From contig CAVSZQ010000005.1 of assembly GCA_963732465.1 (NCBI GenBank), positions 74,358-138,357 on the forward strand: DNA of 64,000 nt, written 5' to 3'. Made by a program: the position numbers and the translations under genes. Under the pieces are notes generated by a model that made no database searches, was not told where the DNA came from, and saw only the letters and a list, made by a program, of their open reading frames with translations. Of this stretch, positions 10,788 to 41,480 are shown in pieces (the stretch's first letter is position 1; each line of letters opens with the position of its first letter). This stretch comes from an uncultured Actinomycetes bacterium. Its GTDB lineage: Bacteria; Actinomycetota; Thermoleophilia; Gaiellales; Gaiellaceae.

Positions 10788-11363
10788 ATGCCGGGTATCG
10801 CTGATCGCGGTACCGGGCTCTGGCGTGCGATCGCGTGGGCCGAAGGTTCCTTGCTGCTCGGTCTTGCCGGCGTCGGCATTGCGGCGGTGAGCACCATGCC
10901 ATCGTGTGACTCCTTCCTGCACGGCTGTCCTCCGGGCGAGAGTGCGATCGGAGGAGACACGATCGTGTGGCTGGTTGCCTCGGGGGCTGCCCTTGCCGGC
11001 GGAATCTTCATGGCGTCCTGGACGTCCGGGTGGATCGAGGCGCGAGCCGCGGTCCGGGCAACGGTGGCGCTGGCGGCAGCGGCCGCCGCGCTGTGGCTGG
11101 GCGGATGGGCCTCCGTCGGGCTCGTCGACGAATTCCTTCCGAGCGTAGTGGTTGCGGTCGGCGTCGCCGGCACCCTCGCGATTCGACCATCGTGGCCGCG
11201 GGCGGTCATCGCGCGATTGGTCGTTCTCGCGGTGTTCGTCATCCTTGCCGTCGGCATGGCCAGCGTTGCCGGGTTGGTGATCCTGCTCTCGCTCCTCACA
11301 CTCCCGGCCATGGGGGCTGTCGAGAGCGCGCTCCGCCCTATCGAGTCCGAGCGAGTCGGCTAA
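10788..11363 (+). CDS. Hypothetical multi-pass membrane protein
   Basis: 191-aa ORF with several long hydrophobic stretches. No recognisable family. Confidence 0.5.
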   Translation: MPGIADRGTGLWRAIAWAEGSLLLGLAGVGIAAVSTMPSCDSFLHGCPPGESAIGGDTIVWLVASGAALAGGIFMASWTSGWIEARAAVRATVALAAAAAALWLGGWASVGLVDEFLPSVVVAVGVAGTLAIRPSWPRAVIARLVVLAVFVILAVGMASVAGLVILLSLLTLPAMGAVESALRPIESERVG

Positions 11364-30109: not shown

Positions 30110-30966
30110 ACCTCACGACCGAGAACACCGCAATCGTGCTCGACTCGACCTCGGACTATCCAGAGGCGCAGTCCCGATTCCCCAACATGCGCTTCGTCCC
30201 GCTGTACGTGCGCTTCGGCGACGACACGTACCGCGACTACGTCGAGCTCGGGCCGGCGGAGTTCTTCGAGAAGCTCCGCACGTCGCCCGTGCTCCCCGCG
30301 ACCGCGCAGCCGACGCCGCAGGACTTCCTCTCGACCTACGAGAGTCTCGCCGGGTACGAGCGCATCTACTCGCTCCACGTCTCCGCGAAAGTGTCGGGAA
30401 CCTTTCAGAGCGCCGAGCTCGCGGCTGCGGAGCTCGGCGACGATCGCGTGCGCGTCGTGGACTCGAAGACGGCGTCGCTCGCCATCGCGATGCTTGCGCA
30501 CGCGATCCAGCGGCGGCTGAGCCGCGGTACGACCGATGTCGAGATCGCGGCGCTGATCGAGCGCTTCCACCGCGATATCGGCGTGGTCTTCACCGTCGAG
30601 ACGCTCGAGTACCTCCAGCGCGGTGGCCGGATCGGCCGGGCGGCCGCGCTCGCGGGCTCGCTGCTCAACGTCAGGCCGATCCTCGGCATCCAGGACGGCG
30701 AGGTCGTCGCTGTCGCACGTGTCCGCGGGCGGCAGAAGGCGCTGGCGGAGTTCGAGCGGCGCTTCGCCGAAGCGACCGAGGACAAGCCGGGGCTTCGGAT
30801 CGCGATCGCCCATGCCGACGCGCCGGAATGGGTCGGCACGCTCTCCGAGCTCGTCTGGCGGGTTCGGCCGAAGGCCGAGATCGAGTTCACGGGCACGCTC
30901 GGCGCCGTGGTCGCCACGCACGCCGGCCCGGGCACGGTCGGCTTCTTCTGGCTCCACGACGACTGA
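30106..30966 (+). CDS. DegV-family (FakB-like) fatty-acid-binding protein
   Basis: Full-length DegV-like sequence (AIVLDSTSDYP..TAQPTP..SGTFQSA..GPGTVG). Confidence 0.9.
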   Translation: MNLTTENTAIVLDSTSDYPEAQSRFPNMRFVPLYVRFGDDTYRDYVELGPAEFFEKLRTSPVLPATAQPTPQDFLSTYESLAGYERIYSLHVSAKVSGTFQSAELAAAELGDDRVRVVDSKTASLAIAMLAHAIQRRLSRGTTDVEIAALIERFHRDIGVVFTVETLEYLQRGGRIGRAAALAGSLLNVRPILGIQDGEVVAVARVRGRQKALAEFERRFAEATEDKPGLRIAIAHADAPEWVGTLSELVWRVRPKAEIEFTGTLGAVVATHAGPGTVGFFWLHDD

Positions 30967-30987
30967 GCGGCCGCGGCGGGTCCGGCT

Positions 30988-32610
30988 CTAAAGGCCGGGA
31001 AGGGAAAGCAGCTTCAGCTCAGATGGCTCGAGCTTCGACAGCCGTTGCCGTACTCACGCGCGTCGGTTCGCAACGACGTCTCCGACGCCTCACTGAGCGC
31101 TACAAACAGCACTTCCGGATCGACGCCGCTTCGCGGTTCAACCACGAGCCAGTTATTCAGTGGGATCGCCCCAGCTCGATTGCGTACGAAGCGGGGACGC
31201 ATGCGGTTCAGATACGTAAATAGGATTGGCGCCTCGAAGTCCGCCTCGACCGCCCACCACGGCCGTCTCGCCTTCACGCGGAGCTTCACGAGGTGGCGCT
31301 CGTGAACGCCAAGCGCGTCGGCGCGCTGTAGGTAGCGTTCGAGTGGACCGCCGAGCCGGGCACGCGACGGATAGAGAAGCCACCGCGGTGCGCTCGCGGG
31401 CAGCGCCGCGAGCGTGTCGTTATCGATCTCTTCGCCGTCAAACCAACGCGGAGAACCTGCGCACGGCCGAAGACATGACCAGTTGAGACCGTGGAGCCGG
31501 CGATCCTCGTCGCTCAGCACAAAGAACTTGTTGCAGCCTGTGGCGGCCCCTCGCCGAACGCGGGCAACTTCTTGAAGAGTCGTTGCCTGCCGATTCCGGG
31601 TGCGCTTCACTGTCGACCACCTCTCTCTGGCCGAGAGCTGAATGTGCGTGGCCCCCGTGTCGGCTGAAAACGCATGCATGATGTCCTCGCGGCTGATCGA
31701 CGCGGCGTGAGCGAAGCGCGTGCGAGCGCGCCCGCTTCGTGTGGCACGCTTGCGGATCAGCGTCACGGCAGCGGTCGTGACGGCGTGCTCGAAGACGAGG
31801 TGGTGCGCCGGAAATTGGACGATCGCCTCGACTTGCGCACGCTCGAGCAAGAACATCTTGACGACGCGTCCGTAGTTCCTATCGAGCCAGTGTGCGGGTG
31901 TGATGAAGGCGAGCCGCGCATCCTCGGCCGAGATCTCGAGCGCACGAATCGAGGAAGAGCACGTGCAGCGACGCGAGCTGGCTGATTTGCAGGCCGAGGC
32001 GACGCTTGAAGCCTGCGTGAATGGCGAGTTTCTCCTCGCGGCTGAGCTCTTGGTGGCGCGTGAACGGCGGGTTGCAGATCACCGCATCGGGCCGTTCCTC
32101 TACGTCGTCCAACAGGAAGTTCCGGGCATGGAGCTCGAGCTCGGCAACTCCGCGAAGGGTCGCGTTCGCCGACGTCATGGTGATCGCGAGCGAGTGAACG
32201 TCGATCCCGACAAACGTGGTCGTCCCGGTGCGCTCGTGCGCGGCGGCCGCGAGGAGCGAGCCCGAGCCACACGCGGGGTCGAGAAGCAGCCGCGGCTCGT
32301 CCGCGAGCAGCCAGGCAGCCCTCGAGCGGCCAATGGACAGCGGGGTGAAGAACTGGCCGAGCGCCCGCCGGTCGCGCCCGTGGAGAACGCGCTCGTACGC
32401 GGCACCGATGACGTCGCGCCCATCCGTCCACGCCGGATCGCCCAGCCGGACGTCGAGCTCGCAAAGCACCGCGGCGAATGCGGCCCTAATGGCGCCCGGC
32501 TCGCGCGCGTCGGCGACGCGGCTGAAAACCCGCGCGACAAGCTGCTCGACAGCGACATCGGGACTCTCCATGAGCTCTGAATCTACGCCGCCGGGCGGAC
32601 GACTCGACAT
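30988..32610 (-). pseudogene. Gamma-class N6-adenine DNA methyltransferase (Eco57I/TaqI-like, with C-terminal target-recognition domain), two frameshifts
   Basis: Motif X GQFFTP, motif I LLDPACGSGSLL, motif IV NPPFTRH. The frame changes near 31948-31950 (LHVLFL | IRALEISAEDARLAFITPAHWLDRNYG) and near 31041-31043 (REYGNG | LSKLEPSELKLLSLPGL-stop at 30988). TRD motif RRGAATGCNKFFVL. Confidence 0.85.
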
Positions 32611-32648
32611 AGTTGTCCGTACGGGGCACCTGATATTGCCTCCGATCC

Positions 32649-32675
32649 TTGCATTGTACGAACTCTTGCTATAGT
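32649..32675 (+). promoter_or_regulatory. Candidate sigma70-type promoter for the RHH gene (TTGCAT-15 nt-TATAGT)
   Basis: Read directly in the AT-rich gap between the divergent MTase and RHH genes. A TACAAT-like -10 exists on the opposite strand (32654-32659). Confidence 0.35.
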
Positions 32676-32695
32676 TCACCCAGATAGCAGCTACT

Positions 32696-33720
32696 ATGCC
32701 GATCGTGACCGTAAACATAGAATCGAACACTCTATGAGGCCGTGGAGAGAGCCTTAACGCAGGGAAACTACAGCGACCTGCACCAGTTCGTCGTCGTGGC
32801 CGTCCGCAACCAGCTCGAGCTCGAGGCGTCCGTCGCTCTCGAGCAGCCGGTCGCTGCGGCTGTCTCTTCGATGCCTCCCGCCGCTACGACTGAAACGCCG
32901 CTGGCTTCGATCCCCCTCGAACTTCCGGCGATGCTGAAGGCTGTGCCGGCCGCGACTGCCGCCGAACTCCCCAAGCCCGTCCCTGTCGACGATGACTCCG
33001 ACGTCCTGTGGGGGCAGATCAACCGCGTCCTCCCGATTGCGGTTGGCGTCCGCGTGCTGGCTCACCTCAGCGCGGACAGGGCGAACGGCGTCTCGGTGGA
33101 GGAGTGGCACGAGACGGCTACGGCCGTGGCCGTCGCGCTGCGGCCGCACCTCAGAAAGCTCGACGAAGCAGCTGGCCGGCGACACGGGAGCCTTTGGTCG
33201 ACCGCGTTCCCGGACGACACGCCTGCGAGTGCGCACCGATACGTCAACCAGTTCCTTGGGCTCCCGAAAGGACGGGCCTCTCCGATGGCGGAGCCGCGTT
33301 CCTTGGCTTCATCGACGTTCGATCGAGGCGACACCGTCGCGACGTCTCACGATCAGCCGGCGCGGAGTGGGCGCGCGTTCGCGAACCCGCTCTTCGACGA
33401 CGGCGACTCGCCGACCCGAACGTTCAGCCTGGAGGAGACCGCGTTCTTCATCAACCACCTGGAGCATGTATCGGCCCGCCGAGCTGCATCTTGCTGAGGC
33501 GGATCGCAGCGCTCGTCGCGCAGGGCCGGTCGCGGACGCAGCTGGACGAAACGCTTGCTGCAGAGCACCCGCAATGGACGAAGTACATCGCGACGATGCG
33601 CGCTGGAGCGCTGGGACGGCTGTCCGACCTCGGGCTTGCTCGAGCGCACCCGGCGCGGCCTCGACCGTCGACTACTCACCTGACGGCGCTCGCTGCGGAG
33701 GTCGGGCTGCCTACCTGATC
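32696..33720 (+). pseudogene. Ribbon-helix-helix N-terminal domain protein with C-terminal winged-helix-like region, frame broken several times
   Basis: ATG 32696 gives MPIVTVNIESNTL-stop. The +1 frame continues YEAVERALTQGNYSDLHQFVVVAVRNQLELE (CopG/Arc-like RHH). The middle is ..DVLWGQINRVLPIAVGVRVLAHL... The tail ILLRRIAALVAQGRSRTQLDE..GALGRLSDLGL / LLERTRRG / STVDYS / LTALAAEVGLPT is spread over three frames. Confidence 0.6.
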
Positions 33721-33738
33721 GGTTGAAGTGGGTGCGGC

Positions 33739-34745
33739 GTGAATAGAGTCGCAGCGCCGACGCTCTCGAAGGATCAGCTGATCCTCGCGATGCTCGCCAG
33801 ACTTGGAGGCGATCGCCGGGAGATGAACGAACGCGACCTCTTTCTCGCGTGCTGGCACGCGTTTCCGAACGCAATGCGGTGGACGGACACGGCACTGCCG
33901 AACCCGGACACGTTCACCGCATCGCTGCGGCGACTCGATGCAGACGGGCTCATCGAACGGATCGGAAAGCAGGAGAGGACGCGTCGGAAGAGCCGCCGTC
34001 GCCAGGCGATCGACGTCGGCCGCTCCGGGAGTCGTGAAGGCGCGGATCGTCGAGGGTGGGCTTGAGAAGGCTGGCCTCACCGGAGGCCGACGTTGACCGG
34101 GTGCGCCGACTGCTACCGCCGCCCGACGCGTACCGGGCAGTTCCCGACGCTGCGCTGCTCGCCCTGTGGATCAAGGCGCGGCGGGACGAGCAACGCCACG
34201 TTGACGAGGGCGCGCTCGTCGAAACGGCTTTCCACAAGTTCCCGGCCGCCTTCGCATATCGCGAGCGCCCGGAGTTCCCGGACACGGCGCGGATCAAGAA
34301 CGGCGATGGCCGGCGCGCATCCGCGACGGGCTTGATCACGTGGGACTTGGAGCTGACTGCCGACAGGGCGCGACGAGATTGAGAGGCACAGCAACCTGAT
34401 CGAACTGCGGCTCGATGCCTCGGAGAGCCACAAGACCGGAGCATTCAAGCTCGCCGAGCGGATCGCGGCAACCGCCGGTTTCGAGCACTACCGCGCGACG
34501 GGGACGCTCACCGCAACCAAGGCCGACGAGCTCTTCCGCGCGCTGCGCGTCGCACCCGACAACGGACCCGAGACCAGTGGCGCAAGCCCTGATAGCGCGA
34601 TCGCGCGACCTTCGAAGGATCGATCGCGGCGATATCGCCGACTACCTGTTTCAGAGTGGCGGAGCACCACAATCCGGAAGTCACACGCTCTCGCGAAGGA
34701 CGACGCTACAAGCCGCAGCAACCGCTGCGCGGCGGGGAGGAGTGA
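33739..34745 (+). pseudogene. Hypothetical protein with an internally duplicated ~110-aa domain, frame broken several times
   Basis: Repeat 1 ..ERDLFLACWHAFPNAMRW..PNPDTFTASLRRLDADGLIERIG; repeat 2 ..EGALVETAFHKFPAAFAY..EFPDTARI..TGLITWDLELT; tail IERHSNLIELRLDASESHKTGAFKLAERIAAT... The pieces lie in ORFs 33739..34065, 34056..34382 and unlisted frame-1/frame-2 stretches. Confidence 0.5.
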
Positions 34746-34749
34746 ATCT

Positions 34750-36687
34750 GTGGCGATTTCTGAAGCCGAACCCGATCTCGAGTACGAGCCGCTTGAGTAC
34801 GACCCGCGCTACTACATCCAAAGCGCGAGGCCGAGCGTCTCGAGCGTCGGGCACATCATCGCCGAGCGTTCGAATACGAGGCGATCTCGCGGCGTGCGGC
34901 TCGCGACGGCACAGGTGACGCCGGCACGATCCGGATCATGTACGACCCGGACCCAATACTGGAGGTTCGCTGACAACGGCGTCGATGTCGGCGGACGAGA
35001 TGAGGGAGCGACTGAAGAAGGTCGGCGCCGCGGCACTGGAAGGCGCGAAGCGCGGCTTCTTCCATCGCGGCATCCAGCGACGTTTCATCCGATGGGGACG
35101 ATCACCGTCAGAGCCTCGGCTCCAGGATGGCGAACTCGTAGTAGTCGCCTCGTTCGACCACGCGCGGCATGGCCTTCATCAGCGCCACGTGAGGTGAACG
35201 ACGCGATCGTCATCGCTCGACTGAGCCACGGGACGGTCGTCACGTTCCCGCTGGCGGCTCGCGGCGCAGAAGCCGAAGCTGTTCAAGTTCGGCACACTCA
35301 AGTCGCAGATCGAGAATTGCGTGCAGGTTCGACCGGTTCTGGCGGATCGACGACCGGGAGATCCTGTTCGAGTATGGCGACAGCCCCGCGAAGCGGCTGC
35401 AGTTCAAGTATCCGAAGGGGGACGAGCTCATTCCGGTGAAGCACAGGTCACAGTGGCCGGGCACTCCGGCGACGTTCTGGGCCGAAGGCCGCCGACGAGC
35501 CGATCACTGGGTGGGTTCGGAAACAGCAAGCTCACGCGCCGCTACGGGCTCCTGATCCGCGGAGAACGGGCGGCGTACGAGGTCTAGCACCGGGGAGAAG
35601 CTGCACACTAACCCGGTGATGCAGCGCGTCTACGGCGAGCTGCGGCTCGACGAGATCGAGGCGCTGCAGCGCGAGGCTGACCGAGAGGCGAACGACGAGG
35701 CTCAGCTGATCTACAAGGCCGATCGGTCCGGCCTGAATGCGGATCACGAACTCGTCGAAGCCACATACGCCTTCATCGACGACGAGCTCGCCCCACTCGT
35801 CGCCGAGCTCGAGGCGAAGGCGGAGAAGAAGGAGATCACGCCGGACATGCGCCGGCAGCTGAACAAGCTCGCGCAGATCATCAACAGGGCGGTCGAGAGC
35901 GCACCGTTCGGTGGCATCGAGGATCCCGGCGGTACGACGACGCCGGAGCCCGGCGAAGGCCCGGATCGTTACTCCCCCGCCACCCAGCCGCCGAAGGCGC
36001 GCGAGGTCGACGACATGGAGTTCGCCTACGAGCTGATCTTCATCCACGCCGGCCAGTCGCGCACCGTCAAGCTCTACTTCAACACTGAGAAGATCCCGAC
36101 CGGGACGCCGATCGAACTCGTTTCGGAGCACGGACGAGATCGTCCGTGAGGTGAAGATAGCAAGCGAGGTGCCGCGCCCGAACGAGAACGCCGTCGCGTC
36201 CGTTGACGTGACGATCATCGCGCACACCGCCGAGGGTCGGCATGAAATCGAGGTTCGCTCCGGCGGCTACGCAGCAACGCTGCCGGTACACGTCCGGTTC
36301 CCGCGCGCGAGCGGGTTCATCAGCCAGATCGTTCTCGACGAGCGCGACTGGCCCTCGGGAAGCGCTTTGTACGATCCGGCTACAGGTCGCGTGACCGTCT
36401 TCATCGGTCGCCCTGAGTTTCGGAGCGCGGCGCTGCGCGCAAAGCGTGACGGCGCCAAGGAATCGATGAAGCACGCGCTCTACCGCGAGCTCGTCGTCGA
36501 GACGATTCGCGAGGCGGCGCTGCGGCCAGCGGCGCAGCGTAAGGCCGAGGTCGAATGGGACGACCTGCCCTACGAGGAACGTCAGGAGCGTGATGCGTTC
36601 CTGAACCTCGTGCTAACCGAGTATTACGAGCTCGACTACCAGCTTCGCGCTGCTCTTCTGGACGCGTTCCTGAATGTTGGTAGCTGA
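34750..36687 (+). pseudogene. GHKL-superfamily (MORC/Hsp90-like HATPase) ATPase of about 645 aa, at least eight frame disruptions
   Basis: GGAGG SD 9 nt before GTG 34750. N-box IIAERSN-EAISRR (frame 1 to frame 0 at 34876), G1 box ILEVR-DNGV-(G)MSADEM split over three frames at 34968-34985, then SHGTVVTFPL. Third-position GC follows each frame switch. The C-terminal half corresponds to ORFs 35616..36149 and 36151..36687. Confidence 0.7.
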
Positions 36688-36801
36688 CGACACCGTAGAC
36701 GCCGTGTCGGAGCGGACTGTCCCGATCGCGCCTCGGGTCCTCGCCGGGATTCTACGGCGACGTGAGGGCGAGACGACATCGTCGCGGCCGCTCCTGCTGG
36801 C

Positions 36802-37960
36802 TTGACGCTCGCGGATCTCGACGCGGATGTCACCGCATCGCTTCCGCCTGAGATCGTTCGTGTTCTTCGGCGTGCGGTCGCGGATCACGTGCGCCAACGA
36901 TGCCATCGCATCTCGAAACTCAAGCCGTTCACACAGATGCCGCGACGTCTGCGCCTGTCGGACCTCGACCTGTCGGTGCGCGCTTTCAACGCGATAAGTC
37001 GATTCCCGCGGCCGTGGCTTCATGACGCGACTATCGGCGTTCTCCTGGAGCCGCCAGGCCTCGGGGCCGGCGTCCTCGTCGAGGTCCTCGCCGCGTAGGC
37101 CGCCGCGAGAGTAAAGCTGTCGCGTCTGCCGATGCTTCGCCACGGAGCCGAAGGAGGCGGAACCTTCGGAGCCGGAGCGGAATGAGCGTCCGATTCCGCA
37201 GCGCGTTCTCGACATGCGCGCGCTCTACGAAATCGGCGCGAGCCTCGGCGAGGTCGCAGAGCGCTTCAGCGTGACCCGCGAGCGCGTTCGTCAGTTGTTC
37301 AACTCCCACGGGGTGCCGACGCGGTCGACAGCCGAGACCGCCGCGATGCGGCGCGAGCAGCTGGTGATCGCGCACCGGGATCAGATCTTCGGGATGATTG
37401 ACGCCGGCGTCGCTCCGAACGAAATCGCCGACCGTCTTGGCATCTCGCCGCAGCGTGTGCACGACGCACTCCACGACGATCCCGGTCGCCGCCGGCTCGC
37501 CGCCTTCCGCCGGACGGCGAAGACGAGACCGAAGCCGAAGTATTCGGACGAGGAAATCATCGAGTGCCTGCGCACTGCGAGCGTCGAACTCGGCGGCGTG
37601 CTGACTACGGCCGAGTACACGAACTACGCGCGCACAAGGCGGTTTCCTGACGGACGCCCGTGGCCGCTACATCAGACCCCGTTTCTCAGGTTCAGCAGCT
37701 GGCGCGCTGCGCTACAGCGCGCTGGGCTCGAGGCGAACCCGCCGTCCGCGATCGCCGGTCAGCGGCTGTTCACGCGCGAGCTCTGCATCGACGCGATCCT
37801 GGAGGTTGAGCGCGAAGTCGGCCATCCCCCAACCGCGGCGGAGTACGAGCGCGCGGCGGTCGCGAGCAACGGAATCCTCCCTAGCCTCGCGACGGTTCGG
37901 CACCGCTGCGGCGGTTGGCAGGAAGCCCTCGTCTCGGCGGCGCGGTCTAGCCAGTTCTGA
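36802..37960 (+). pseudogene. RNAP alpha-CTD-like + sigma70 region-4 HTH + second HTH + two homing-endonuclease-associated (HEAR) repeats; in-frame TAG plus a frameshift
   Basis: LSDLDLSVRAFNAISRF..TIGVLLEPPGLGAGVLVEVL (alpha-CTD-like); TAG at 37096; then the +1 frame reads ..ERNERPIPQRVLDMRALYEIGASLGEVAERFSVTRERVRQL (sigma r4), PNEIADRLGISPQRVHDAL, and two repeats ending FSSWRAALQRAGL / CGGWQEAL. Confidence 0.6.
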
Positions 37961-38052
37961 GCGGTTGATGAGCCTGAACTCTGCGACTCGAGACCTCGTC
38001 GAGCCATAGCTGATACGCGAAGTGACCTAATTGGCCTGACCCGGTCTGAAGT

Positions 38053-40144
38053 TTGAAGCCTCACGCCAGACTCGTAAGGTTCGCCGGCGGGGAGGCGCCT
38101 GCCTCTTGGCCGCGGCCGCGGAGCGTGCCGCGCCCGGAACGGCTCGCAGCCTCCGTCGAGACACTCGACGGCGTCGGCCCTTCCGTCGCGAAGCGGCTCG
38201 CGAAGCTCGGGCTCGAGCAGGTCGGCGATCTCCTCTGGCAGAGGCCGCGGCGCTACGAGGAGCCGGTGCCGGAGAAGCGGATCTCGCATCTCTTCGGTGA
38301 GGACGAGGCCGTGATCGACGTCGAGGTCGTGTCGGTTCGGAGCCGGAGACGAGGCCGCCTGTCGATCCTCACCGCCAAAGTGCAGGACGACACCGGTTCG
38401 ATCGAGGCGACCTGGTTCAACCAGCCGTGGCTCGAGGGCAAGCTCCCGGGCCGCCGCGTCCGACTGCGCGGCCGCCGGAACAGGTTCGGCTTCGGCGTCT
38501 CGTCGTACGACCTCGAGGGAGAGGCCGAGACCGCCGACTTCGCGCCCGTCTACCCGGCGAGCGAGGACGTCACGCAGAAGAAGCTCCGCGAGCTGCGCGC
38601 GCAGGTGCTCGGGCTTGTACGCGACGCGGGTGAGCCGCTGCCCGCGGAGCTGCGTGCTCGCGAGGGCCTGCCGCTGCGCGCCGACGCACTCGCGGCCCTG
38701 CATCGGCCGCGGGCGCTCGACGAAGCGGAGACCGGCCGCGCGCGACTCGCGTTCGACGAGCTTCTCGTCCTGCGGCTCGCGCTGGCGCGAACTGCCGCCG
38801 AGCGCGAGCAGGCGTCGGCAGAGCCGCTCGCCGAGCCTGGCGAGCTCGTCGCCGCGTACGGGGCAGCGCTTCCCTTCGAGCTGACGCGAGATCAGGACGA
38901 AAGCGATCGCCGAGATCGACGCCGACCTCGGCCGCACGACGCCGATGCACCGCCTCCTCCAGGGCGACGTCGGGGCGGGGAAGACCGTCGTCGCGCTGTA
39001 CGCGCTCCTGCGTGCAGTCGAGGCGGGGCGTCAGGCGGCGCTGATGGCGCCGACCGAGACACTTGCCGAGCAGCACTTCCTCACCGTCGACGAGCTCTGT
39101 TCCGGGCTCGGGATCAGGGTCGAGCTCCTGACGAGCTCGCTCCGTGCGAGCCAGCACGCGAACGTGCGCCAGCTGATCGCGTCCGGCGACGCGCTCCTCG
39201 TCGTGGGCACGCACGCACTCATCCAGAAGGAGGTCGAGTTCCGCGACCTCGCGGTCGTCGTCGTGGACGAGCAGCACCGCTTCGGAGTCGGGCAGCGGAG
39301 CGCCCTCGCCGAGGGCCGCAGCCCGCACGTCCTGCACATGACCGCGACGCCGATCCCGCGCACGCTCGCGCTCACCGTCTACGGCGACCTCGACGTGAGC
39401 GAGCTCGCGGTGCTGCCGGCGAACCGCAAGCCGGTCATCACGCGGCGCATCCCGGACGAGCGCGCATCGGAGGCGTACACGCGCCTGACCCGGCTTCTTC
39501 ACGAAGGCCGTCAGGCGTACGTCGTCTGCCCGCTGATCGAGCAGTCCGAGACGATCCGCGCGCGTGCGGCAGAGGCCGAGGCCGACCGCCTGCGCTCCCA
39601 CGAGCTCCGCGACTTCAGCGTCGGCTGTCTCCACGGGAAGCTCAAGGCCGCTGACCGACGCGAGCTGATGGCGCGCTTCAAGGCTGGAACGCTCGACGTG
39701 CTCGTCGCGACGACCGTGATCGAGGTCGGTGTCGACGTCCCGAACGCCACGGTGATGATCGTGCAGGAGGCCGACCGCTTCGGGCTCGCGCAGCTCCATC
39801 AGCTGAGAGGGCGCGTCGGGCGTGGGGCGGAGCAGTCGTACTGCCTGCTTGTTTCGCGGCCGACCGACGAGCTGACAGAAGACGCGGCGAAGCGCCTCGA
39901 CGCGATGGTCGAGACGACCGACGGCTTCGTGCTCGCCGAACGTGACATGGAGATCCGCGGCGAGGGCCAGCTCCTCGGCGCGCGGCAGTCCGGCTTCTCG
40001 GATCTCCGCTTCGTCCGCCTTCGAAAGGACCACGACCTGCTCGAGCGCGCTCGGGACGCGGCTGCGACGGTCACGGACGAGGGCCTGCTCGCCGAGGAGG
40101 TCGACGCGCTCCTCGGCGAGGCTGAGCACCTTGGTGCGTCTTGA
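38053..40144 (+). pseudogene. recG: ATP-dependent DNA helicase RecG, reading frame broken once at the AAA run 38900-38902
   Basis: The wedge/N-terminal part is in the frame of 38053 (likely start GTG 38125) up to FELTRDQDE. Removing one A restores ..AIAEIDADLGRTTPMHRLLQGDVGAGKTVVA.. (ORF 38945..40144, with DEQHRFGV and helicase C motifs). Confidence 0.88.
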
Positions 40145-40205
40145 CCCGAATCCGCGAGCGCGGATTCCGGGTCGCGCAAGAGCTTGCGGCCGCTTCGCAG
40201 CCGCG
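40143..40205 (+). repeat. Family-B repeat, copy B5 (H1 + H2)
   Basis: GACCCGAATCCGCGAGCGCGGATTCCGGGTC .. GCGGCCGCTTCGCAGCCGC, overlapping the recG stop codon (40142-40144). Confidence 0.8.
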
Positions 40206-40318
40206 CGACGAGTCGTAACGATCTGGTGAAACGAGCCCCCAGGTGTGCGGTTAACCGCACCTGCAGTGTCGAGATCGCACCACTGCGCCGACGCGGAGCC
40301 GCTGCGAGGCTGGGGCCC

Positions 40319-40846
40319 ATGGAGCACGCCCTCACCGCACCCGGTTGCGACCGGGGCCTGGTCAGCGTCGAGCGCCTTCGTGGTGGGGATCGCGCGGCCA
40401 TTCTCGAGGTCTTCTCGGGGATGTCGGAGCGGTCTCGCCGGCTGCGCTTCCACGGTCCGAAGCCGCGGCTTCGGGAGGTCGAGGTCGAGCGCTTCGTGGA
40501 CGTCGGATGCTGCGGCCGGGAGGCGGTCGCGGCAACGGACCTCGTATCCGGCGCGGTCGTCGGCACGGCGCGCTTCGTGCGCGACGACGACGATCCGCGC
40601 TCGGCCGAGGTCGCGTTCGAGGTCGTCGACGACTGCCAGGGCCGCGGCGTCGGCCGCCGGCTCGTCGACGAGCTGAGCGCGCTCGCCCGGCGTGAAGGCA
40701 TCCAGCGCTTTCATGCGACAGTCGTTCCCAGCAACGAGCCGGCCCTCGCGCTTCTCCGTCGCGCCGGCCGGCTCGTCCACTCCTCGTACGTAGACGGTGC
40801 CCACGAGCTCGTAGTCGAGCTAGTACCGCTTTCGCGGGCAGCGTGA
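40319..40846 (+). CDS. GNAT-family N-acetyltransferase
   Basis: Acetyl-CoA site QGRGVGRRLVDEL and a GNAT-like fold pattern. ATG 40319 chosen downstream of the repeat. Confidence 0.8.
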   Translation: MEHALTAPGCDRGLVSVERLRGGDRAAILEVFSGMSERSRRLRFHGPKPRLREVEVERFVDVGCCGREAVAATDLVSGAVVGTARFVRDDDDPRSAEVAFEVVDDCQGRGVGRRLVDELSALARREGIQRFHATVVPSNEPALALLRRAGRLVHSSYVDGAHELVVELVPLSRAA

Positions 40847-40872
40847 GTCCGACCGACCCTCGGCAGCTTCTC

Positions 40873-40915
40873 GCGTCAGATCAGAGTCCGCTCTCTCGCG
40901 GACTCTGATCGCGCC
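40873..40915 (+). repeat. Family-B-like hairpin, copy B6
   Basis: GATCAGAGTCCGC-TCTCTC-GCGGACTCTGATC, perfect 13-bp stem, with GCG..GCGCC flanks. Confidence 0.65.
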
Positions 40916-40946
40916 AGGATTCGGCGCGGATGCGAGTCTTCGCGGC

Positions 40947-41480
40947 ATGCGCATCGTCGCGGGCTCGCGCAAGGGCCACGGAATAGCCGCGCCCAAGGGC
41001 GTCGTCACGAGGCCGACCGGCGATCGCGTGCGCGAGGCCGCATTCTCGATCATCGGCCCGGTCGAGGGCGCCCGCGTGCTCGACCTCTTCGCGGGCTCGG
41101 GTGCGATGGGCCTCGAGGCCCTCTCGCGCGGAGCGGCGGCCGCCGTCTTCGTCGAGAACGATCGCGAGGCGTGCCGTGTCATCCAGCGGAACCTCGAGAA
41201 GCTCCGCCTGACCGGCGCGGACGTCCGCTGCCAGGACGCGCTCGCCGCCCTCCACGACGAGAAGGCACGCGGCCGGCGCTACGACCTCGTGCTCGTCGAC
41301 GCGCCGTACGAGGACTGGGAGCGCCACGAGAAGCCGCTCGGCGAGCACCTCCCGGATCTCCTGACGGACGACGGGATCGCCGTCGTCGAGACCTCGGCAC
41401 GTACCGAGCCGCAACTTCCCCTCGACCTCGTGACCACGCGCCGCTACGGTTCCGCGCGCATCACGGTCTTCTCCCGATGA
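40947..41480 (+). CDS. rsmD: 16S rRNA (guanine966-N2)-methyltransferase
   Basis: TRPTGDRVREAAF, DLFAGSGAMGLEALSRGA and VDAPY motifs. Confidence 0.9.
   Translation: MRIVAGSRKGHGIAAPKGVVTRPTGDRVREAAFSIIGPVEGARVLDLFAGSGAMGLEALSRGAAAAVFVENDREACRVIQRNLEKLRLTGADVRCQDALAALHDEKARGRRYDLVLVDAPYEDWERHEKPLGEHLPDLLTDDGIAVVETSARTEPQLPLDLVTTRRYGSARITVFSR

Follow-up and report, generated by a model that had tools for sequence, protein, structure and literature searches.

In a soil genome of the Gaiellaceae (Thermoleophilia), the genes degV and recG are separated by about 7.1 kb of DNA carrying five genes, every one of which is disrupted by frameshifts. The question raised by this locus is whether it represents the remains of a system in the course of decay or an intact system the reading frames of which were broken during assembly. 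The locus lies within a stretch of 64,000 nucleotides that was analysed in its entirety and is denoted the window below; a previous interpretation made from the nucleotides alone (the sequence-only reading) preferred decay and kept assembly error concealing an intact, uncharacterised system as a fallback. The fallback fits the evidence better than decay, and the explanation that best accounts for the data, namely, an acquired island carrying an intact cassette, with frame breaks made by error and a methylation-guided function of the encoded module, appears reasonably probable as a whole. The elements of the locus are as follows.

30967 to 38050, strand not applicable: inserted island between the degV stop codon (30966) and the recG start (38053), 65.9% guanine plus cytosine (GC)
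30988 to 32610, minus strand: predicted N6-adenine methyltransferase (MTase) of the gamma class, Eco57I / M_Eco57I_C type, with an NPPF motif, about 540 amino acids (aa) after repair
32611 to 32695, no strand: AT-richer divergent intergenic region (GC ~0.62) between the MTase gene and the A-D operon
32696 to 33718, plus strand: gene A, weak ribbon-helix-helix (RHH) match at the N-terminus, about 341-347 aa, 12 frameshifts
33739 to 34745, plus strand: gene B, two winged-helix-like domains and a helical C-terminal domain, 331 aa, 11 frameshifts
34750 to 36687, plus strand: gene C, predicted GHKL ATPase that also comprises a middle domain like that of Hsp90, a beta-sandwich and C-terminal helices, 652 aa, 15 frameshifts
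36674 to 37960, plus strand: gene D, N-terminal extension, two sigma-70 region-4-like helix-turn-helix (HTH) domains and two HEAR (HNH_repeat) units, 429 aa, 4 frameshifts

The interval is a real, horizontally acquired genomic island. The GC content of positions 30967-38050 compares with 70.6% for the remaining window, and 171 other segments of 7.1 kb have a minimum of 68.8% (mean 70.75, standard deviation 0.8), so that the island lies about 6 standard deviations lower; the cassette has 63-65% GC in all hosts examined. The DegV protein, used to scan species-representative genomes, yielded 74 loci, nearly all of them from metagenome-assembled genomes (MAGs) of Gaiellaceae or Thermoleophilia and many from MFD-labelled MAGs with Flye-style contig names. 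In most of 72 Gaiellaceae/Thermoleophilia genomes, the gap between degV and recG is only 14-720 nt, and proteins of the island are encoded within 10 kb of degV in none of these 72 relatives. In a DNA alignment with seven relatives, collinearity is lost at 30966/30987 and regained from 38080. The short gap, the cassette-free relatives and the break of synteny together therefore identify the island as a real insertion, and the AT-richer island that the sequence-only reading placed between degV and recG is borne out, including by the comparison of the same interval in relatives that it had proposed. The island is probably strain-variable. A contig from another sample (L001; 7,046 bp) represents the same locus at 88% nucleotide identity; it spans window positions 31033-38096 and takes in the first 44 nt of recG.

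Profile searches with Pfam and PADLOC recognise no integrase, transposase, nuclease or helicase among the open reading frames (ORFs) of the island, in agreement with what had been read from the sequence. No direct repeat or target-site duplication is found at the island ends, where the sole terminal match is a 9-nt inverted one, ATGGCTCGA / TCGAGCCAT, at 31023 and 37999 (chance expectation ~0.17). Palindromes such as GGGGTCAGGCTGAAGCCTGACCCC occur in the degV-recG spacer of relatives (L011 and L024, around 10870-10960), and related half-sites flank the island in the window, GGGTCCGGC... on the left and GGCCTGACCC on the right (30967-31040 and 37990-38090). The possibility that the degV-recG interval is a shared defence hotspot was considered and rejected: the larger inserts at this position in five distant relatives (L061, L065, L068, L076 and L081) resemble the host in GC and contain unrelated genes with housekeeping or regulatory roles.

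Frame disruption of every gene, with more than a dozen breaks in total, was already noticed in the sequence-only reading, and the actual number is greater. Frameshift-aware alignment to the intact proteins of L165, a short-read scaffold from farmland, gives 44 frameshifts in the island (2 in the MTase gene, near 31036 and 31950, 12 in A, 11 in B, 15 in C and 4 in D, the latter all within the N-terminal third), compared with a single one, in recG, in about 28 kb of comparable flank. The 44 breaks are best explained, judging from the sequences, as errors in the consensus of a noisy metagenome assembly from long reads, and the organism most likely carries an intact cassette; that the indels are an artefact of some kind, be it plain noise or a chimeric consensus, can be considered quite likely. 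Error is favoured over decay because of the intact short-read copies of the cassette, the lack of nonsense codons, the third-position bias of substitutions, the spectrum of indels, the defect in recG and the frameshifts in other long-read MAGs.

The intact homologous cassette of five genes for which the sequence-only reading recommended a search is found in L165, which has no frameshifts over the five genes, and likewise, save for a single frameshift in D, in L163 (a JGI short-read contig). In both, an MTase gene of 540 aa is divergent from genes A (347 aa), B (331 aa), C (652 aa) and D (429 aa). Eleven short-read metagenome contigs, the short-read L006 and the long-read L162 show no frameshifts in about 36 kb of B-C-D sequence, and the long-read Flye contigs L002 and L004 contain one and two, respectively, in these genes. 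The independent long-read copy of the same locus, L001, contains 20 frameshifts over the five genes, and none of the frameshifts in L001, L002 or L004 is at a position affected in the window. Among loci L009-L081, the degV and recG genes carry 11 frameshifts per 92 kb in long-read (MFD, Flye) MAGs vs 1 per 57 kb in short-read assemblies. The frameshift in the recG gene of the window is of the same kind as those in the island: at 38886-38900, a 1-nt insertion outside a homopolymer ('CAGGACGAAAGCGATC' vs 'CAGGA-GCGCGCGATC' in nine relatives) changes the reading frame within a conserved motif, approximately 295 codons into a protein that is intact in the relatives (703-727 aa). This insertion is probably an assembly error and can serve as an internal control. 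The window and L001 err in opposite directions, with mostly extra single bases in the former and mostly missing single bases in the latter, which hints at different sequencing chemistry or polishing. Basecalling error induced by methylation was rejected as the cause of the indels: the errors in the window and L001 are at different, non-motif positions.

Real pseudogenisation, whereby an acquired island is now in decay and its frameshifts exist in the organism, is the explanation that had been preferred, but it appears unlikely. The frames are truly broken in the given sequence, with a density of frameshifts about 100 times that of the flanks, and an orphan module without a partner nuclease could be dispensable. 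Nevertheless, the approximately 2,290 codons of the repaired frames include no nonsense codon, and all five proteins align essentially end to end (residues 1-540 of 540 for the MTase, 1-341 of 347 for A, 1-331 of 331 for B, 1-652 of 652 for C and 1-429 of 429 for D). About 2.7% of random substitutions would give a stop codon, so that the probability of zero stops is at most 0.0025 if at least five neutral substitutions accompany each indel. Differences between the window and L001 amount to 9.6%, 5.3% and 19.5% at codon positions 1, 2 and 3, a bias that persists within the blocks between indels, and the window-unique substitutions located more than 20 nt from any alignment gap are distributed as 38, 22 and 77 over the three positions. 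It is also the case that about one third of the window-unique substitutions look unconstrained and that the window branch carries approximately three times more unique substitutions than that of L001, which leaves room for some recent relaxation of selection. The estimated ratio of about 2 unconstrained substitutions per window indel is, however, far below the expectation from bacterial pseudogene evolution.

The spectrum of the indels is equally atypical of decay. With L084 as the outgroup, 3.8 kb of sequence contain 31 frame-changing indels unique to the window, 10 unique to L001 and 5 on the far longer L084 branch; the window-unique ones comprise 19 insertions vs 12 deletions, and 44 of the 55 short extra-base events are outside homopolymers. 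This dominance of 1-nt insertions outside homopolymers is unlike the deletion bias and homopolymer slippage on record for bacterial pseudogenes. In one case, at 33345-33374, the frame is regained through the combined effect of three +1 insertions that all fall within 30 nt, and L001 there reads like the distant reference.

The density of indels within the island is patchy, being high at 33270-35600 and near zero at 37250-37960, and this patchiness is compatible with a variant of the artefact, a chimeric consensus. Under this scenario, polishing would have produced a mosaic of at least two co-occurring strain variants of about 88% identity (the window and L001 types), with the consequence that the indels and scattered substitutions are present in no real molecule. 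An 88%-identical variant of the same locus does exist in another sample, and L001 is a stand-alone contig with ends nearly coincident with those of the island, as variable bubbles in assembly graphs typically give. Most of the window-unique indels, however, differ from the L001 state, and a mosaic is indistinguishable from plain low coverage on the present sequence data; the chance that the consensus is chimeric seems small. As for plain assembly error, low local read depth or a strain mixture over an insert carried by a minority strain would concentrate errors in the island, and this would fit the assembly of L001 as a separate, island-sized contig.

The identification of an N6-adenine MTase gene on the minus strand in the sequence-only reading is upheld by a Pfam match to N6_Mtase (E 1.4e-15), by the 'ICNPPF' motif in ORF 31879-32730 and by the 84% identity of the repaired protein, over 100% of the length, to intact MTases of 540 aa such as P0215, which contains the domains PF02384, PF07669 and PF22837. 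In PADLOC, the window MTase matches mad2 and MTase_II. The divergent region upstream has been regarded as AT-rich and as a control region. The AT-richer composition is evident, and a search of 32500-32800 for a sigma-70-like promoter consensus and for repeats detected nothing beyond chance, so that a control function of 32611-32695 is only presumed.

Protein C appears to belong to the GHKL ATPase superfamily, an assignment supported by motifs and by the predicted fold. The Bergerat motifs (IAEAFSNSDEA, DDGAGM and GFFHRGIRD) are whole in L001 and L165, and the GHKL motifs are whole also in L087; in the window they are split over three frames. The Pfam scores are below the thresholds (HATPase_c_3, 24.7 bits vs a cut-off of 25; a further score of 21.5 vs 26.4 bits). 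In the AlphaFold model (mean predicted local distance difference test score, pLDDT, of 68, low over residues 1-120), the C-terminal third is predicted to consist of a beta-sandwich and helices, and the top Foldseek matches are the N-terminal and middle domains of HtpG, Hsp90 and TRAP1 (E 2e-12, approximately 420-450 columns, TM-score 0.32). There is no MORC structure among the 50 Foldseek matches listed for C, and searches of PDB sequences with profiles of C and B gave nothing meaningful.

The product of gene B is a protein with two winged-helix-like domains and a helical domain in the AlphaFold model (pLDDT 85.5), which agrees with the duplicated domains noticed in the sequence-only reading. 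Foldseek detects no PDB match at E <= 0.001 (best E 0.03) and no hidden nuclease fold in this protein; the winged-helix matches, of the PadR/MarR type, are weak (E 1.5-2.1). The B family includes at least 155 clusters, every one of about 330 aa and without a Pfam domain or annotation. The profile of B has only 67 matches among 1.84 billion representatives at 50% identity, two of which are full-length core clusters, and no relatives of B are found in viral contigs.

For protein A, both an RHH domain and a winged HTH (wHTH) domain had been suggested. The former survives as a hint below the threshold (RHH_8, E 0.032); no wHTH profile matches the protein, and the suggestion of a C-terminal wHTH comes only from visual inspection and from the analogous variants that occupy the same slot in other loci. 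Protein D had been described as a fusion of sigma, RNA polymerase alpha C-terminal domain (alpha-CTD) and HEAR modules. The Sigma70_r4 match in the window (E 4.5e-8, 32.9 bits vs a threshold of 24.1) and the two copies of HNH_repeat/HEAR (E 6.6e-19) are above the thresholds, whereas the N-terminal extension gives only a hint of RNA_pol_A_CTD (E 0.0011-0.041, 14-19 bits vs a threshold of 23.8). Sigma regions 2 and 3 are absent, and D is therefore not a sigma factor. An intact orthologue of D, in L084, is 432 aa long.

The cassette is rare but conserved and taxonomically narrow, being found in soil Thermoleophilia and related uncultured Actinomycetota. A search with the C-terminal two thirds of C against 5.8 billion proteins returned 28 matches, and a scan of metagenomes at least 265 loci with relatives of C, which fall into two groups; only about 11 of these loci belong to the subfamily of the cassette type. 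In subfamily 1 (L082-L092, approximately 50% identity), B is always encoded upstream and D downstream where the contig reaches that far, and a small gene for a DNA-reader protein, either the RHH-type A, HARE-HTH (31.5 bits) or Mrr_N (56-59 bits), precedes B. An MTase gene is present in every sufficiently long locus, with MTases from at least three lineages in varied positions and orientations. Genes for a nuclease of the RE_XamI family adjoin the cassette in L004/L082, L086, L087, L006 and one JGI contig; a recognisable nuclease is missing from half of the known cassette copies. Integrases, excisionases, AbiEi/AbiEii and a DEAD/ResIII helicase are among the neighbours in several loci. In particular, AbiEii/AbiEi are encoded beside the cassette in L163 (2930-4407), a 668-aa DEAD/ResIII helicase and an uncharacterised 319-aa protein in L165 (163-3140), and an ORF of 1,100 aa, with faint matches to AAA_23 and MC2 and fragmented in L004, follows D in L082 (12753-16052). 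The genes beside intact cassettes suggest a defence-island context. Subfamily 2 (L093-L161, 69 loci, approximately 30% identity to C, about 700 aa) consists of stand-alone genes, without conserved neighbours in the 69 loci and hence without a functional clue; one member, L003:10001-11776, is located among genes for Fic, HicB-like, TrwC relaxase and integrase proteins.

Two deviating forms of the cassette can be mentioned. L006:8992-13213, on a MEGAHIT contig, is a reduced form that encodes a 230-aa RE_XamI protein, a 278-aa protein, D and a 524-aa MTase, with a DDE transposase nearby; the 278-aa protein corresponds to the C-terminal domain of C only and has no GHKL domain. L162:5854-7627 and a Logan contig from ERR11718641 represent the HARE-HTH variant without D, and three unannotated genes (166-180, 196 and 222 aa) that precede the MTase gene in these copies may be extra components of this variant.

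In the best reading of these data, the cassette is an intact, strain-variable, methylation-linked module of the defence type. The linkage with MTases, which is obligate although the MTases are interchangeable, the DNA readers in slot A and the mobile, defence-rich context place the module in the world of restriction-modification. The predicted architecture of C is that of GHKL ATPases, such as MutL, MORC, GyrB and Hsp90, which work as nucleotide-driven dimerising clamps, and Mrr_N and HARE-HTH are DNA-reader domains of restriction enzymes. The MTase would mark host DNA as self by N6-methyladenine (m6A), and the winged-helix readers A and B, possibly also D, would find unmarked or differently marked DNA. 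Like MutL and MORC, the predicted ATPase C would then dimerise, driven by ATP, and function as a clamp or matchmaker that couples recognition to an effector, presumably the neighbouring nuclease of the XamI family where one is encoded. In the copies without a nuclease, including the one in the window, the effector could be unlinked or of an unrecognised kind, or else DNA could be blocked or compacted directly. Sensing of adenine methylation by prokaryotic winged-helix domains is documented (PMC11037411), and it has been predicted that GHKL+S5 ATPases in restriction-modification operons connect the recognition of a site with cleavage (Iyer et al. 2008; PMC2292703).

Several observations weigh against this account. 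A nuclease or other effector is unrecognised in the window and in L001, L002, L162, L163 and L165, and neither a tblastn search of the window with RE_XamI nor a search of the island ORFs for nuclease families yields a match. The Pfam support for the GHKL, RHH and alpha-CTD domains is under the curated thresholds, and no cassette copy is found in viral contigs. The approximately 100-fold excess of indels over the flanks requires the extra assumption of low local depth or strain mixture, and on the long window branch the third-position bias is somewhat weaker than on that of L001.

The frequent lack of a nuclease can be construed in two other ways. The nuclease-less form (window, L001, L163 and L165) might be a complete non-cutting immune or epigenetic system, in which the readers would load a MORC-like clamp of C on unmarked DNA, silencing or compacting the invader, and D would block RNA polymerase or act as a decoy, the target of which would be phage proteins that hijack the sigma region-4 and alpha-CTD modules of RNA polymerase; this scenario is quite improbable. 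Alternatively, A-D might not be a defence effector but serve mobile restriction-modification elements as a module for regulation or maintenance, for example, one controlling MTase and nuclease expression upon entry into a new host or mediating epigenetic gene regulation. This is a live alternative, albeit an unlikely one. DNA-binding domains dominate all four proteins, D has a sigma region-4-like HTH, many loci lack a nuclease, and where the XamI nuclease and the MTase are both present they already make a complete restriction-modification pair on their own. A 652-aa ATPase and three DNA-binding proteins would, however, be a large investment for regulation, given that the controllers known from restriction-modification systems are small, single HTH proteins. 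Furthermore, the composition of the module is constant while the type and position of the MTase vary, and the neighbours are often other defence genes (AbiE, DEAD/ResIII helicase). The assignment of the cassette to methylation-linked defence is retained as the best reading.

Above threshold, no curated family is matched by B, C or the RHH-type A. Models for A, B and C are lacking in PADLOC, NCBIfam and PHROGs, where D gives only weak, sub-threshold matches and the MTase alone is recognised; this concurs with the earlier statement that the locus corresponds to no described defence system. The closest described kind is the MORC/paraMORC-type GHKL ATPases of restriction-modification loci; the MORC/paraMORC label of the sequence-only reading is a tentative one for C. 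In the MORC/paraMORC1-5 GHKL+S5 proteins (PMC2292703), as apparently in C, the GHKL ATPase is combined with a second, transducer-like domain and an extension of the C-terminus that is specific to the family, and they too are encoded beside DNA methyltransferases, sometimes together with a type II nuclease, on mobile DNA. In contrast, the cassette has no conserved partner of the SF2 helicase, Vsr, HNH or restriction endonuclease (RE)-fold kind, its partners are three DNA-binding proteins (A, B and D) without known families, and the best folds for C are those of Hsp90/HtpG, with HATPase_c_3 just under the threshold. The motif specific to MORC proteins is GhXhhpXXRhl (PMC2292703).

The Mza system (mzaABCDE; PADLOC and NCBIfam NF041931) consists of the sigma-70-family protein MzaA, a MutL/MORC-like ATPase, Z1, a nuclease and AIPR, and shares with the cassette a sigma-70-like HTH protein and a GHKL-type ATPase in a methylation-associated defence locus. 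However, D matches MzaA over only 22 residues of region 4 (17.7 bits vs a cut-off of 800; PADLOC E 0.0074), the cassette has no Z1, AIPR or PD-(D/E)XK component, and the MTase is of the adenine rather than the cytosine type. Membership in Mza was rejected, given that no protein reaches the family cut-off and the other Mza proteins are unmatched. Membership in MADS (methylation-associated defence system, mad1-8) was rejected as well. Among the PADLOC models, mad2 is the one that the window MTase fragment matches best (E 1.4e-17), but this match covers the generic MTase core, and the intact relative scores far higher on MTase_II; mad3-8 are unmatched, mad1 is matched only with E 2.8e-4 on a 20-residue HTH, and the intact A-D proteins match nothing in the system.

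The type II systems of the XamI/SalI kind combine an Eco57I-like gamma m6A MTase with RE_XamI, and the window MTase has the same set of domains. The MTases of L082/L004 and L006 match the PADLOC model MTase_II PDLC03222 with E values down to 6e-121, and RE_XamI is identified in L082 with E 3.8e-43, and in L004 and L006 by precomputed calls. The window, L001, L002, L162, L163 and L165 differ in lacking a recognisable nuclease, and identity between the window MTase and the XamI-paired MTases is only 26-35%. Finally, the cassette is reminiscent of MutL-MutH-Dam mismatch repair, with a GHKL matchmaker, a mark made by an adenine methylase and, in some loci, a type II-like nuclease; the cassette has no MutS-like sensor and resides on a mobile island, so that the resemblance can be taken as an analogy only.

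Outside the island, the window contains a second, small presence/absence difference. An ORF at 40184-40846 (region 40145-40950), in the interval that separates recG from the next conserved gene, lacks a counterpart in several relatives (L011, L019 and L022) and is present in L010, L025 and L037.

Altogether, frameshifts that are densely clustered in, and limited to, a foreign island of a long-read MAG should not be taken as decay, and calls of gene decay on long-read MAGs of this clade need caution. Decay and error can be separated even without the reads, by means of short-read copies of the cassette, counts of nonsense codons after frame repair and codon-position bias. The eye-catching frame breaks are probably an artefact, whereas the conserved module underneath, which lacks a recognisable nuclease in half of its copies, reasonably qualifies for follow-up. 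If this module is indeed a defence system, it would provide an experimentally tractable bacterial case in which a MutL/MORC-like ATPase couples the reading of methylation to an outcome.

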